DNA from: Candidatus Uhrbacteria bacterium
GTDB taxonomy: Bacteria; Patescibacteriota; Patescibacteriia; UBA9934; GWF2-40-263
Assembly: GCA_013204385.1 (NCBI GenBank)
Contig: JABMNY010000003.1
Location: 14,270 to 78,269, forward strand
Direction: 5' to 3'
DNA: 64,000 nucleotides
Program-made: the position numbers and the translations under genes
Shown: positions 13,959-21,450 of the stretch, piece after piece
Layout: each line of letters begins with the position of its first letter
Position numbering within the stretch: position 1 is the stretch's first letter
Notes under the pieces: generated by a model
Database searches by the model: none
What the model was told of the DNA's origin: nothing
Seen by the model: only the letters and a program-made list of their open reading frames with translations

Positions 13959-14312
13959 TTAACTTTCTTTTGATTGTTTAATTAACCAGTTCGTTGCGAG
14001 TGAGATCACCCACAAAAGAAGTGCTGCCAATAATGCAGGAACGAATCCTTCTACATTGAACCCTTTCACAATGGTTGAAACCAGCCAAATCATCAAGGCA
14101 TTGATCACAAACGAGAATAATCCGAGCGTGATGATTGTGACAGGAAGTGTCAGAATGAAGAGGAGCGGTCGAATAAGTGCATTCACAAGCCCTAAGACAA
14201 GCGCGGCAATAAGTGCACTGTAGAATGTGTCCACACCAAACCCAGGAACCACATTCGCGACCACAAGGAGTGTAACTGCATTAATCACCCATCGAAATAA
14301 GATCTGTGCCAT
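13959..14312 (-). CDS. Phage-holin-4-like / DUF360-type small multi-TM membrane protein
   Basis: Start chosen at MAQILFRWVINAVTLLVVANVVPGF (4 nt after xseB stop); 3-4 TM helices. Confidence 0.5.
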   Translation of the reverse strand: MAQILFRWVINAVTLLVVANVVPGFGVDTFYSALIAALVLGLVNALIRPLLFILTLPVTIITLGLFSFVINALMIWLVSTIVKGFNVEGFVPALLAALLLWVISLATNWLIKQSKES

Positions 14313-17148: not shown

Positions 17149-17468
17149 ATTCCCTTACCTTCGACAAATTCTCCGCAAGTAAATCCTGTTGGGCACTGGG
17201 CGTCACTCTCACACTCACAGTATTCGAAGCACAGATCAATACAAACCTCTCCAGGATTCAGTCGACACGCAGATCCGCACGCGTTCCATGTCCCTCCCGA
17301 ACTCGCACAACTTGTCTGATTCAATACACTCTCCTCAGATAGTTCTTCTTGTGCCTGCTCTGTACTGGTTGGAACTTCTTGCATTTCACGCTCTCCCCTT
17401 GGCATAAGCCAATACAACGCAATCAAGAGGGCTCCAAAGAACAGTATGGTGAATATCCCTTTTTTCAT
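17139..17468 (-). CDS. Small secreted cysteine-rich protein (12 Cys in C-terminal 55 aa)
   Basis: Start at MKKGIFTILFFGALLIAL (3 nt after upstream stop); CASSGGTWNACGSACRLNPGEVCIDLCFEYCECESDAQCPTGFTCGEFVEGKGICL. Confidence 0.5.
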   Translation of the reverse strand: MKKGIFTILFFGALLIALYWLMPRGEREMQEVPTSTEQAQEELSEESVLNQTSCASSGGTWNACGSACRLNPGEVCIDLCFEYCECESDAQCPTGFTCGEFVEGKGICL

Positions 17469-18865
17469 AAAATGGCATTTTCTCGCACCCAACGCTGAAG
17501 GACATATGTTGCACGTACATCATCCTCATTATATTCCAAAATTTTCTGCAACACTTTAGGTTTCTTTTTTTGTAGCCATTCTTCAAACCAAAGGACAGAA
17601 TTGGCTCCGCCTGCATCCTCTGCCCGCCAAGAAAAACCGATATAGGCAGCAATATCTTTTAACGAATAGGACGAGAGAGGGAAAATAACGGTTGGACGGA
17701 TAATGGAAAGCAAATCAATCATATTCGTCTCAAGTGCCTCACGCGCAATCTCTCCAATTCCATATTTCGCCCCAAAGCGACGGACGACCTCTTCTTCAAA
17801 CCATCCGTAATGATAGATTGGGGAATCAATATGACGTTCAATAAAATGGACAAACTCTGCCCACATCTCCCCTTCTTTTTCTGGAGACTCTGCAAAAAAT
17901 GAATGATAAACCTCCTCTTTCTCACTTACCTCCAACACCCCAAACAAGTAATCAAAATCCCGAAGCGGATCACTTTCAATATCAAAATAAAGTTCCGTTC
18001 CGGCTTCTGGTAAATGCGCAGTTCCTCGAATGATGTGGCGACGCTCTGTAAGTGCAATGGCTTGATCACGCATCATTTCAAGTCGCGATGAACTAACGTC
18101 TGGAGCAAGCGATTCTAGCTGCGTCACAGACATCAACGAGAGCTTGGCGATAGTGGTCACCCCCGCTTCTGCAAGCCGATGAACTTCCTCTCGCCAGACA
18201 CGATTCAGCAACGATAAATCATCACAACTCTCTGATTCATTTTTACATTCCTTCTGCCAAGGAGATTGCTTACACCCACTTGTCATAAAATGAGCTGGAC
18301 GCGCCCCAGAAATGATCTTCTCAATCTCTGTAAGCGTGAGCTCATACTCTGCCTCAAACTCTTCAATGAGATACGGAAATGTTTCGTTGTCCGGGGAGAC
18401 CACATACCCTTGAACAGGTCTCACTCCCTGAAGAGACTCGAGAAGCTCCGCATAAAAACAACCTTGAAACTTAAACTCATCTCGCAGAAAGCGCGAGCGC
18501 TTCATGTCTGCAGCCACGTAGTAAAAATTTCCAAGTCGTGAACGACCTTCAACTTTCTCAAGCACGTCCGGATGCCCTACCCAATGCTTATCAATCAGCA
18601 CACCATGATAAATGGTTTGACGCCCCTCTCGCATAAATGCGAGCGTTTGTTTGAAAGCTTCCTCTGGATCCTCTGCCGTTACTTCTACGAGATCTTGTTT
18701 ATCTGAAAGTAAATCACGCTCCTTTTCCTCAATAAGGCCATCGTCTTGAAGTTTTGCCATCAGCACCTCATGCGGTCTTGGCTCTCCAGAATGTGTATCA
18801 AAATACACCCAATTTGGACATTTGAGATATTGATAAAACGTCTTTTCCGTAATTGATCCATGCAT
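17465..18865 (-). CDS. TM0106-family RecB-like nuclease with C-terminal RNase-H-like exonuclease domain
   Basis: Start chosen at MHGSITEKTFYQYLKCPNWVYF (alternative 18916); YHGVLID..HPDVL..YYVAADMK nuclease core; C-terminal LYFDIESDP exonuclease-like motif. Confidence 0.65.
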   Translation of the reverse strand: MHGSITEKTFYQYLKCPNWVYFDTHSGEPRPHEVLMAKLQDDGLIEEKERDLLSDKQDLVEVTAEDPEEAFKQTLAFMREGRQTIYHGVLIDKHWVGHPDVLEKVEGRSRLGNFYYVAADMKRSRFLRDEFKFQGCFYAELLESLQGVRPVQGYVVSPDNETFPYLIEEFEAEYELTLTEIEKIISGARPAHFMTSGCKQSPWQKECKNESESCDDLSLLNRVWREEVHRLAEAGVTTIAKLSLMSVTQLESLAPDVSSSRLEMMRDQAIALTERRHIIRGTAHLPEAGTELYFDIESDPLRDFDYLFGVLEVSEKEEVYHSFFAESPEKEGEMWAEFVHFIERHIDSPIYHYGWFEEEVVRRFGAKYGIGEIAREALETNMIDLLSIIRPTVIFPLSSYSLKDIAAYIGFSWRAEDAGGANSVLWFEEWLQKKKPKVLQKILEYNEDDVRATYVLQRWVRENAIL

Positions 18866-18909
18866 ACACGCATTATAGCAGAGTCTTCTAAAATTTGGAG
18901 CATGTTGAG

Positions 18910-18939
18910 TTGACAATTTTGGCTATTTTCCCTAGATTA
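18910..18939 (+). promoter_or_regulatory. Near-consensus sigma70 promoter TTGACA-N17/18-TAGATT driving the E2/E1/Ubl operon
   Basis: ttgacaattttggctattttccctagatt; GGAG RBS ~6 nt before ATG at ~18985. Confidence 0.5.
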
Positions 18940-18984: not shown

Positions 18985-20406
18985 ATGCCCCAAAATACCG
19001 AGATCGATCAATTTCTCACGAGACCGCTTCACAAAGCGTTTCTTGTTCCAGAAGTCTATGGACTTGAACAAAGAGAAGCTCTCATCACAGCTGGATTCAA
19101 AACCAGCTTGAAGACTGCGCGCAGTGGTCACTTCGCTTTTCGTGCACTGTGCATTTACATCGGTCGTCGAGGAAACGCACGACTGCAACGATTGCAATCA
19201 GCCATCAAGATCATATTCGACTCGACCGATAAGCTCGCAAGCTTTGAAGGACGCATCGTTGATCAGATTCTGCCCATCATCGCTCCGAGCGATGTTACGG
19301 TCCATATTGATCAGACACAACGAAATGATTCGACTGGAAACGATCCGACGGAAAAAGCGCTAAACGCTTATCTTCCGATCCTGACACGATTGGCTCAGAT
19401 TTCCGGGCTCAGTGTGGAATTCCATGTTCCACAAAAAGAACGGCTTCACTCACCCCATGCATCCGACGGTGTGATCCATATCTACGCCAACGCCTGCCCA
19501 CCTGGAGAATATCAATCTTGGTATGTCGATACGGCATTTGGACTCACGATTGCTCCTGCATCAAAAGACCGGCCTGTCGGCTATGGCCCAACACAAGGAA
19601 GAGGAATTGTTCTGAAGGATGCAGATGAAAAAAATCTTGTTCAAATTCTCGAAGACACTTGGTACCTTCTCATTCCAACGCTTGGAATCTTCAATCCTTT
19701 GACGAGTGTCCAGATCTTCGAGCAATTGCTCGCGCTCGGTTGGGATGCGAAGCGCACGGGAAAGCCTACTGCCCAAAAACCTCTTCCGTGCACGAAATTT
19801 CTCCGAAAAGCTCGTACATGGATCGAACCGTTTGCGGATGGCGCTACGGAAAATGCACGCAACTGCGAAGAAGAGATCAAGCGATTGCATGCAAGGCTCG
19901 CAGAGAAAACGCGCGAACTCGTTCTCTGGAGAGGTATGGAAGAAGCTCTGAAAAAGACATCGTATTCTCGCGCAACCAAAAAACGGCTTCCAAAGGATCT
20001 TCAGATCATTCTCAATCTTCCGGATGTTGATCGCCTGGAACTCTTCGAGGATGCCATGCATGTGTGGACACGTCCTCTTGTCATCATTCATGAACTCGAG
20101 GCGTATCTCGCAGGAACTTTTGTTATTCGTCTCAACAAGGAAGGTGGTGTAACCGTGTGGAGTGAAGACTCCACCCATCCAGACGGGGTTCCTCATCCGC
20201 ATATCGCCAAGCATGGCGGTCCTTGCTTTGGAAACGCTGGAACAGCCATAGCTAAAGCTGGAGGAGAGGCGCGTTACGCAGATGCTGTAAAGCATGTCCT
20301 CACCTGGCTGATACTTGGTTACACACCAAATCTGGCAACAGTGAAAATTGAAGCATGGCCGAAAGTCCCAAGCATGGAGAACTCCGATGCAACCTCCCCC
20401 TCCTGA
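18985..20406 (+). CDS. 473-aa protein: uncharacterised N-terminal ~380 aa fused to C-terminal UBC/E2-like domain (HPH-x4-G-x-C)
   Basis: Start at MPQNTEIDQF (ORF track start 18895 is upstream alternative); C-terminal HPHIAKHGGPCFGNAG...LTWLILGYTPN resembles E2 catalytic core; GC above flanks. Confidence 0.6.
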   Translation: MPQNTEIDQFLTRPLHKAFLVPEVYGLEQREALITAGFKTSLKTARSGHFAFRALCIYIGRRGNARLQRLQSAIKIIFDSTDKLASFEGRIVDQILPIIAPSDVTVHIDQTQRNDSTGNDPTEKALNAYLPILTRLAQISGLSVEFHVPQKERLHSPHASDGVIHIYANACPPGEYQSWYVDTAFGLTIAPASKDRPVGYGPTQGRGIVLKDADEKNLVQILEDTWYLLIPTLGIFNPLTSVQIFEQLLALGWDAKRTGKPTAQKPLPCTKFLRKARTWIEPFADGATENARNCEEEIKRLHARLAEKTRELVLWRGMEEALKKTSYSRATKKRLPKDLQIILNLPDVDRLELFEDAMHVWTRPLVIIHELEAYLAGTFVIRLNKEGGVTVWSEDSTHPDGVPHPHIAKHGGPCFGNAGTAIAKAGGEARYADAVKHVLTWLILGYTPNLATVKIEAWPKVPSMENSDATSPS

Positions 20407-21052
20407 CCGTTCCATGAACTTTGATCAACAAGATGAGCTCTTTGATCCCGCACTTGCACGACCTGTTACCGTCATTGGTGCAGGGTCTGTTGGTGGTGAA
20501 GTGGTGGTCAAACTCTCTCAAATCGGAGCAGTGAATATCCAAGTTTGGGACAATGATGATGTAGCTTCACACAATATTCCTATGAGCGTCTATCGGATCA
20601 AGGACCTCGGTCGTTATAAAGTCGATGCTCTCAAGGAGATTGTAAGAGAAAAAAGTGGAATAGAGATCAGAACTCACCTGAAAAATTGGACGAGACAGCC
20701 CCTCAGGGATTCCGTCATTTGTTGTGTTGATTCCATGGATGTTCGTTGCGATGTCTGGGGGATCGTACGAGACAATCCACTCATCGATGTCTTCATTGAC
20801 ACACGGATCGCAAAAGAATTCGTCGTGGTCTATGCCATCAACCCCACAGACCCAGTACAGATCGCGTTTTACGAATCGCGATTGTACTCCTCAAGCGAAG
20901 CGGTAACGCCAACATGTGGAGACCATGGCATAACCTATGTCAGTAGTATCGCCGCCAGTGCAGCTATTGCACGATTGACGAATTCGTGGAAAGGCGGTAC
21001 AAATTCCCCACTATTTGAGATGTTGGTGGGTAACCTCCTTCAAATCACCTAG
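20387..21052 (+). CDS. ThiF/MoeB-type E1-like adenylyltransferase (short, no rhodanese domain)
   Basis: VTVIGAGSVGGEVVVKL (GxGxxG), VWDNDDVASHNIPMSVY, D..ICCVDS ThiF pattern; ATG at ~20387 has GGAG RBS and overlaps upstream gene by ~20 nt. Confidence 0.75.
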   Translation: MQPPPPDRSMNFDQQDELFDPALARPVTVIGAGSVGGEVVVKLSQIGAVNIQVWDNDDVASHNIPMSVYRIKDLGRYKVDALKEIVREKSGIEIRTHLKNWTRQPLRDSVICCVDSMDVRCDVWGIVRDNPLIDVFIDTRIAKEFVVVYAINPTDPVQIAFYESRLYSSSEAVTPTCGDHGITYVSSIAASAAIARLTNSWKGGTNSPLFEMLVGNLLQIT

Positions 21053-21090: not shown

Positions 21091-21339
21091 ATGTCAGCCA
21101 CAGTCACCGTACGAGTGGTTCCGCTAAGCGGAACCCCGACCGAAGTCACCGTACCATTCAAGAAGGGAATGACCGTCAATTCGGCGCTCACCGCCGCGGG
21201 GGTCTCGAGCGACAAGCGCGACCTCTCTGTCGAAGCGGCTCCGGGCCAGACCCTCAAGTCGGGTCAGACCGTCGTCGTCACGGATAAGGTCAAGGCCGGC
21301 GGGCAGGTCACTGTCCGCGAACGTCCACAGGGGTCCTGA
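21091..21339 (+). CDS. Small beta-grasp-sized protein (candidate ubiquitin-like/ThiS-like carrier) with internal GG followed by 11-aa C-terminal tail
   Basis: MSATVTVRVVPLSGTPTEVTVPFKKGMTVNSALTAAGV...TVVVTDKVKAGG|QVTVRERPQGS; AAGGAG RBS 5 nt upstream; ~60% GC. Confidence 0.5.
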   Translation: MSATVTVRVVPLSGTPTEVTVPFKKGMTVNSALTAAGVSSDKRDLSVEAAPGQTLKSGQTVVVTDKVKAGGQVTVRERPQGS

Positions 21340-21450
21340 CCCTACAACAACAAGAGTGCCGTCTCCGACACTCCGCTACGCCCCGACCCCTCATTGAGCG
21401 GTCGGTTTTATTTTTCCTTATTTGTCGGCGGCTCAGCCCCCGACCTGGTT
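21340..21450 (+). terminator. Intrinsic terminator (ccgacc-N11-ggtcgg + TTTTATTTTT) followed by conserved 34-nt module TTATTTGTCGGCGGCTCAGCCCCCGACCTGGTTG
   Basis: Module recurs as reverse complement at 35405-35452 downstream of the other high-GC orphan gene. Confidence 0.55.

Follow-up and report, generated by a model that had tools for sequence, protein, structure and literature searches.

Gene content of the cassette

The stretch analysed here (the window) comprises 64,000 nucleotides (nt) of Candidatus Uhrbacteria bacterium, positions 14,270 to 78,269 of contig JABMNY010000003.1 in assembly GCA_013204385.1. On its forward (+) strand it encodes three adjacent genes: one for a protein here named E2L, in which a novel N-terminal domain (N-domain) and a putative coiled-coil arm precede a domain resembling ubiquitin-conjugating (E2) enzymes, one for a minimal activating enzyme (E1) of the ThiF/MoeB type, and one for a small, predicted beta-grasp protein. 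The signature sets of both the E1 and the E2 are conserved, and thus the cassette is very probably a module for conjugation of a ubiquitin-like protein (Ubl).

The E2L gene (18985..20406, +) opens at an ATG (18985; MPQNTEIDQF...) and continues for 473 codons to a stop at 20406. The protein is identical to the NCBI hypothetical protein HQ487_00245 (Candidatus Uhrbacteria bacterium). The equivalent methionine is the start in 12 E2L homologs and a GGAGA ribosome-binding site is located 4 nt 5' of the ATG. A candidate sigma-70-like promoter, identified by consensus match only (TTGACA-17-TAGATT, 18910..18938, +; 10 of 12 positions), falls 3' of an alternative TTG start at 18895 and so supports the ATG.

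The E1 gene (20387..21052, +; 221 aa) begins at an ATG that is also preceded by a GGAGA site, and overlaps the end of E2L by 20 nt (20387-20406). Equivalent overlaps occur in homologous loci, and the arrangement suggests translational coupling and a fixed stoichiometry of the two proteins. The third gene (21091..21339, +; 82 aa) encodes the ThiS/SAMP-like protein, which ends in ERPQGS, with Ser82 (Ser87 when counted from an upstream TTG) immediately before the stop, and has an AAGGAG ribosome-binding site 7 nt upstream. An intrinsic-terminator-like hairpin and U-run, reading UUUUAUUUUU after the hairpin (21383..21415, +), ends the operon. The folding energy for 21340-21420 is -20.3 kcal/mol, with a z-score of -3.4.

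The E2-like domain

Residues 329-462 of E2L (19969..20370, +) have the ubiquitin-conjugating (UBC) fold in the AlphaFold2 (AF2) model of the full-length protein, a model of mediocre confidence (13 sequences, predicted local distance difference test (pLDDT) 74). The order of elements is a helix, a six-strand meander, a loop with the residues H404-P405-H406 (nt 20194-20202) and Cys414 (nt 20224-20226), and three helices. The loop has the spacing between HPN motif and catalytic cysteine that is expected of an E2, with HPH as the variant. When the profile of the domain was aligned by hhalign with three canonical E2s, 83 columns were matched (probability 57%, E 1e-4), with HPH404-406 on H75-P76-N77 and Cys414 on the catalytic Cys85 of UbcH5b. 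Cys414 is present in all of 141 full-length relatives over which residue conservation was counted, and H404, P405 and H406 each in 140. The motif H[PA][HN]...C was found in 158 of 160 retrieved sequences; exceptions involve an HVH variant, a frameshifted contig and a fragment.

No match to curated E2 profiles (Pfam UQ_con, Prok-E2_A-E) was obtained at E<=10 for 45 family members, and the PADLOC E2 models do not match the family. We conclude that, among proteins of the UBC fold, the E2-like domain represents a new sequence family. In one subclade of homologs (P0007-P0013, 509-563 aa) the E2 domain is followed by 40-90 C-terminal residues of low complexity, rich in Ala, Asp and Glu; this tail is lacking in the E2L of the window.

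Boundary and fold of the N-terminal region

An earlier reading of this DNA, made from the sequence alone (the sequence-only reading), had described a region of about 380 residues fused upstream of an E2-like domain. The fusion is confirmed: the open reading frame is real and the E2 fold is at its C-terminal end. The extent needs correction, given that the E2-like fold starts near residue 329 (nt 19969) and that the end previously given to the region, 20130 (residue 382), is inside the E2 beta-sheet (strands 348-393). With the boundary at about residue 328 (nt 19968), the N-terminal region resolves into a globular domain of 262 aa and a heptad-repeat helical segment of 66 aa.

AF2 modelling of residues 1-262 with 38 diverse sequences gave a pLDDT of 94.3 and a predicted TM-score (pTM) of 0.91, and all five models reached at least 93.3. 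These residues are thus predicted to be a real, independently folding alpha/beta domain that is specific to the family. In the model the domain is two-lobed. Subdomain A (residues 18-110; 19036..19314, +) has a beta-alpha-beta-beta-alpha-beta-beta-beta order, a topology like that of ferredoxin and PII. After a variable loop, subdomain B (residues 121-262; 19345..19770, +) is modelled as a helix, seven strands and a helix, and carries the family motifs P157, P172-P-G174, G205-R-G207, D212, Q220 and Y227. The helical linker (residues 263-328; 19771..19968, +) contains a 45-residue helix, 280-324, whose hydrophobic periodicity peaks at 3.5 residues across the 141 sequences, which indicates a heptad-repeat arm of the coiled-coil type.

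Mean pairwise identity is 37% for the E2 domain, 28% for subdomain B, 17% for subdomain A and 15% for the linker. The strongly conserved positions of residues 1-328 are mostly Gly and Pro (P22, G141, P157, P172, G174, G186, G205, G207). Polar positions conserved at 79% or above number only four: R206 (79%), D212 (79%), Q220 (97%) and Y227 (89%). The most conserved patch of the N-domain runs from G205-R206-G207 through D212 and Q220 to Y227 (19597..19665, +), with counts among the 141 relatives of 138 for G207, 137 for Q220, 131 for G205, 126 for Y227 and 111 each for R206 and D212. No position in residues 1-328 is Ser, Thr or Cys in at least 66% of these relatives, and neither a conserved metal-ligand set nor a family-wide His/Asp/Glu set was identified in the region.

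The sequence-only reading had singled out a His/Cys cluster as the one conspicuous local feature, and this does not hold up, as Cys171, His155 and His165 are poorly kept. Position 171 is Cys in 13 of the 141 relatives, Ser in 37, Arg in 23, Val in 15 and Ala in 13; His155 is in an insertion that 132 of them lack; position 165 is His in 84. H147 and H165 are each His in about 60%. What is conserved in this stretch is P157, P172 and G174. The poor conservation rules out the cluster as a metal or catalytic site.

Relatives of the N-terminal region

The region had also been called unrecognisable, and searches bear this out, with nothing recurrent in Pfam, NCBIfam, PADLOC or PHROGs for E2L and 38-45 diverse relatives. 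At E<=1 the whole E2L protein matches nothing in Pfam, NCBIfam or PADLOC, and its PHROGs matches are all noise (E>0.2). The 38-45 relatives, scanned singly against Pfam, NCBIfam and PADLOC, yielded no recurrent family and only coiled-coil chance matches. Searches of PDB sequences with the single E2L sequence and with the full-length family profile returned only chance matches of keratin and other coiled coils to the central helix, and a profile of residues 1-262 returned none even at E<=10. Thus, across the Pfam, NCBIfam, PADLOC, PHROGs and PDB profile searches no well-known housekeeping domain was found; such a match would have counted against the sequence-only reading.

Fold comparison of the N-domain was made against PDB libraries. 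Foldseek with the AF2 model, a check that the sequence-only reading had suggested, found no PDB structural match at E<=1e-3. The best matches are weak (E 0.015, query TM 0.19), to PII/PstA-like ferredoxin folds, and presumably fall on subdomain A. From the model, the two-lobed domain has at most a remote, unproven likeness to the class I glutamine-amidotransferase-like fold class. The nucleophile elbow with its His/Glu triad that marks that class was not found, there being no conserved His/Glu pair in the 141 relatives. If the N-A-C-P-P-G turn is a relic of such an elbow, the nucleophile itself would have been lost.

The absence of a JAB or papain signature, as claimed earlier, stands, and no metzincin or DUF6527 signal was seen in any library either. 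For JAB/JAMM (E..HxH..S..D), papain-like (Cys-His) and DUF6527 BubE-like (Ser-His) sites there is neither a profile match nor a set of conserved catalytic residues in the region. A second E2/RWD-like domain in the N-terminal part was considered and ruled out, with no E2/RWD match for residues 1-262 and an hhalign probability of 0.1%. As judged from these profile and sequence searches, the N-domain is a new domain family without detectable relatives.

The E1 and the Ubl

The E1 consists of a single ThiF adenylation domain, 186-224 aa long across loci. It matches Pfam ThiF (1.8e-12) and the Cap2 models in PADLOC; its best NCBIfam matches are ThiF and MoeB, and its PDB matches are TcdA, PaaA, Cap2, ThiF, MccB, UBA3 and UBA5. 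The motifs GxGxxG, SHN, DTR and C190-G-x-H are invariant in 12 aligned E1 sequences. From its position, Cys190 may correspond to the crossover-loop cysteine of ThiF/MoeB.

Orthologs of the small protein exceed the Pfam ThiS cut-off (31.6 versus 22.5 bits) and also match SAMP2, Ub-Mut7C, ThiS-like and Ub-RnfH, and the protein is accordingly classed, by profile, as a predicted beta-grasp Ubl. Of 22 distinct loci, 21 encode the C-terminus [E/Q][R/K]-P-x-G-S-stop (21322-21339 in the window) and the other (L010) encodes ...PQG-G-stop. Among Ubls, it is unusual for the Gly to be followed by a conserved Ser. Many Ubl orthologs (L001, L003, L006, L008, L015) have a polybasic N-terminal tail, for example MARKKSGSGKKKSGSK, which might bind nucleic acid or membrane or provide acceptor lysines; the Ubl of the window lacks it. 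The Ubl gene has 63.5% GC compared with 46% in the window, and the whole cassette, at 50.2%, is in the top 5% of windows of the same size. This could reflect horizontal acquisition, or simply a composition rich in Ala, Gly, Val, Pro and Arg.

Family size and genomic context

An exhaustive profile search over 1.84 billion representatives identified 2084 E2L-family proteins at E<=1e-3, 664 at E<=1e-10 and 174 at E<=1e-30. A word-indexed search found only 13 clusters, and adding alignments gave no new members. Among the best 150 of the 2084, which were inspected, nearly all are 420-560 aa long and cover profile positions of about 20-470 or 130-470, and the N-domain and E2 domain co-occur in essentially all. 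This coverage, with the H[PA][HN]...C motif in 158 of the 160 retrieved sequences, shows that the two regions go hand in hand. Nearly all the members whose names were sampled are lone sequences from metagenomes, annotated at most as 'hypothetical protein', and no description of the E2L family was found in the searchable literature.

We examined 27 related contigs, about 20 of them distinct, which are labelled as Uhrbacteria, Parcubacteria, 'Patescibacteria group', Binatia, two Gammaproteobacteria metagenome-assembled genomes (MAGs) and unclassified bacteria. Three of the contigs end before the small gene. The order E2L, ThiF-type E1 (186-224 aa, usually overlapping the E2L stop) and a protein of 70-98 aa is found in all 24 contigs that reach far enough downstream. 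The flanks, made up mostly of housekeeping genes, differ among loci. Across the 27 contigs there is no recurrent peptidase, whether JAB, DUF6527 or another, in or beside the cassette, and no rhodanese, cysteine desulfurase, PP-loop or pyridoxal-phosphate (PLP) enzyme is linked to it in the examined loci. Relatives are lacking in 50,697 phage records, 72,556 plasmids and IMG/VR, and an origin from a phage, plasmid or viral contig is thus unsupported.

In the window the flanking genes are unrelated and on the opposite strand, encoding a TM0106 RecB-like nuclease and a DUF4015 protein. The TM0106-family nuclease (17465-18916, - strand) has a C-terminal RNase_H_2 domain and weak similarity to Cas4. 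It is divergent to E2L and 68 bp from the E2L start, a pairing not seen in other loci.

One subclade (L001 3330-5857 and 8715-12322; L006, L008, L020, L023, L003) shares extra neighbours: 1-3 Exo_endo_phos (EEP) genes upstream, a 204-aa protein, and downstream an AAA_28 gene with a CYTH-like N-terminus. The neighbours are 45-80% identical despite Parcubacteria, Binatia and Gammaproteobacteria MAG labels. Either the bins are mislabelled, and some of the labels do look inconsistent, or a larger island moved between phyla. The high mutual identity suggests synteny of a lineage rather than a functional requirement. Neither the window nor the other clades have these genes.

Comparison with known systems

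The cassette would operate in the manner of the known E1/E2/Ubl operons of bacteria, yet it fits the definition of none of them. In the Type II cyclic-oligonucleotide-based antiphage signaling system (CBASS), Cap2 is an E2-E1 fusion that acts with a CD-NTase substrate, the JAB protein Cap3 and an effector. Here, E1 and E2 are separate genes, the Ubl is a dedicated beta-grasp protein and none of those components occurs in the flanks. Type II CBASS also has no counterpart of the 328-residue novel region of E2L, and only the E1 half of the cassette resembles Cap2, the PADLOC E2 models being unmatched. Lacking a CD-NTase and an E2-E1 fusion, the cassette is not CBASS.

Like the cassette, Bil operons encode the Ubl, the E2 and the E1 in separate genes, and some Bil Ubls also have one residue after the conserved Gly (PMC10557695), although in Bil this tail is variable and here it is a conserved Ser. 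The Bil E2 is proposed to recognise targets directly without a ubiquitin ligase (E3) (PMC11601596). Bil comprises four genes, including the JAB peptidase BilC and an E1 of IAD-AAD-CYS architecture, whereas this cassette has three genes, no JAB and a single-domain E1 of 221 aa. PADLOC Bil models do not match it. Given the lack of a JAB and of a multidomain E1, the cassette is not Bil.

The Bub (6E/DUF6527) systems are likewise a diverged family of bacterial E1/E2/Ubl operons found by genomics. Type II Bub is usually without JAB, and Bub is characterized by Ubl-E2 or E2-E1 fusions, the DUF6527 serine protease BubE and oxyester intermediates (PMC11601596). In contrast, the genes here are unfused, DUF6527 was not found in any locus, and Cys is kept in the E2 and in all 12 aligned E1s. 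Without DUF6527 or fusions, and with Cys kept in place of oxyester chemistry, the cassette is not Bub.

UBE2O is a eukaryotic E2/E3 hybrid enzyme. E2L has no sequence or fold relation to it outside the UBC core, and instead carries a compact alpha/beta fold of 262 aa on a coiled-coil-type arm. Maturation of UFM1 involves dedicated UfSP cysteine proteases, the pathway has an E3 complex, and UFC1 lacks the HPN motif. Compared with UFM1-UBA5-UFC1, the cassette has no UfSP or E3-complex counterpart and keeps HPN as HPH. ThiS-ThiF, MoaD-MoeB and SAMP-UbaA likewise pair a small beta-grasp protein with a minimal adenylating enzyme of the ThiF family. In those systems there is no E2 and the carrier terminates in G-G, whereas this cassette has an E2-fold protein as an obligate third partner and a carrier ending in G-S.

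Proposed mechanism and alternatives

In established systems, a ThiF-type E1 activates a beta-grasp protein by adenylating its C-terminal carboxylate, and a UBC-fold protein with an HPN-Cys loop accepts the Ubl in thioester linkage and transfers it to an amine. We propose that the small protein is adenylated at its C-terminus by the minimal E1, which is probably dimeric, and that the tag would then move as a thioester to Cys414 of E2L, possibly through Cys190 of the E1. The heptad-repeat arm of about 65 residues would hold the N-domain in front of the E2-like domain, where it may act as the built-in adaptor of an E2/E3 hybrid. The patch in subdomain B (R206, D212, Q220 and Y227, together with the PPG and GRG loops) would be the docking site for a partner that stays constant, be it the E1, the E2 active site or the tail of the Ubl, and the variable subdomain A would select the target, a division suggested by conservation alone. 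The arm would probably pair two E2L copies to match the dimeric E1. We infer the thioester chemistry, the adaptor role and the oligomerisation from these features.

That the N-terminal region is a non-catalytic adaptor, making E2L an E2/E3 hybrid, is the best-supported reading, though it falls a little short of probable. It is argued from the constant fusion of a well-folded region without a conserved catalytic set to an E2 domain, and from the conserved face in subdomain B, the fast-evolving lobe A and the coiled-coil-type arm. Of the roles offered in the sequence-only reading, target recognition and E3-like activity fit the data, at the level of inference, whereas the weakest support is for precursor processing after GG: an internal GG is missing from the small protein, which ends in ...PQG-S with a single conserved residue behind the Gly, and the N-region has no conserved Ser/Thr/Cys or metal-ligand set. 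Several considerations count against an adaptor. It is argued mainly from missing catalytic signatures, which is weak evidence, and some active sites are unusual, the Ser-His dyad of BubE being an example. The near-invariant Q220 beside two glycine-rich loops could just as well denote a site for a small molecule or nucleotide. The Ser conserved at the end of the Ubl hints at processing, and apart from the N-domain no enzyme for such a step is visible.

The last of these hints leads to a peptidase, in which the N-domain would trim the terminal Ser to expose the Gly, or reverse conjugation, replacing the JAB and DUF6527 peptidases of other bacterial systems. The G-S ending in nearly all distinct loci would call for such an activity, and there is a precedent in Type II Bil, where the one residue that follows the conserved Gly obstructs the ATP site, so that BilC has to remove it (PMC10557695). 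It would also account for the lack of a peptidase gene in or beside the cassette in the examined loci. Structurally, the weak fold resemblance to the class I glutamine-amidotransferase-like superfamily and the N-A-C-P-P-G turn after a strand, which resembles a nucleophile elbow, point in the same direction. That superfamily includes peptidases. However, no more than 50 of 141 relatives have Cys or Ser at the elbow (residue 171), with Arg, Val and Ala among the replacements, and neither a family-wide Ser/Thr/Cys or His/Asp/Glu set nor a JAB, papain, metzincin or DUF6527 signal is present. Trimmed residues tend to vary, unlike this conserved Ser, and the lone G-G variant (L010) suggests that the last residue need only be small. 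A peptidase is therefore distinctly unlikely. The same weak fold hints, together with the glycine-rich loops, could instead reflect some other enzyme or a ligand-binding module (e.g., for a sugar, lipid or nucleotide) that directs the Ubl to a non-protein acceptor or is a regulated effector, which we regard as rather unlikely.

A different view of the whole cassette takes it not for a protein-tagging system but for a ThiS/MoaD-ThiF-type pathway, either sulfur-carrier or biosynthetic, with E2L as the acceptor-side enzyme. The minimal E1 with its best NCBIfam matches to ThiF and MoeB, the Pfam ThiS matches of the small-protein orthologs, the housekeeping contexts and the lack of matches in phage, plasmid and IMG/VR collections are all consistent with this. 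We consider it unlikely, since the partner combines a UBC fold, an HPN-type motif and an invariant Cys, the signature of Ubl transfer; the small protein ends in G-S and not G-G in 21 of the 22 loci; none of the sulfur- or PLP-dependent enzymes listed above is linked to it; and its sporadic spread across phyla is unlike that of a core biosynthetic pathway.

Implications

Bacterial E1/E2/Ubl operons (CBASS Cap2, Bil and Bub) have recently shifted views of the origin of ubiquitination and of its use by bacteria. The E2L family is large, known from metagenomes only and missing from every annotation library tested. It combines the simplest possible E1, an E2 with a eukaryote-like HPN-Cys signature, no deconjugating enzyme and a well-folded domain without recognisable relatives. 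It is possible, if somewhat doubtful as a whole, that the cassette represents an unclassified and widespread family of minimal ubiquitination-like systems, with about 2000 clusters at 50% identity, from uncultivated bacteria, among them the Candidate Phyla Radiation (CPR)/Patescibacteria, in which a structurally new domain on an HPN-type E2 would serve as an in-built E3 and the Gly-Ser terminus would reflect a maturation or transfer chemistry unlike that of Bil, Bub, CBASS or eukaryotes. The conserved terminus poses a testable question, whether the Ser is retained or removed. If the N-domain is indeed a built-in E3 or target receptor, the cassette would provide a compact model, of three proteins, in which specificity needs no separate E3, and a new fold to place in the evolution of ubiquitin-type cascades.
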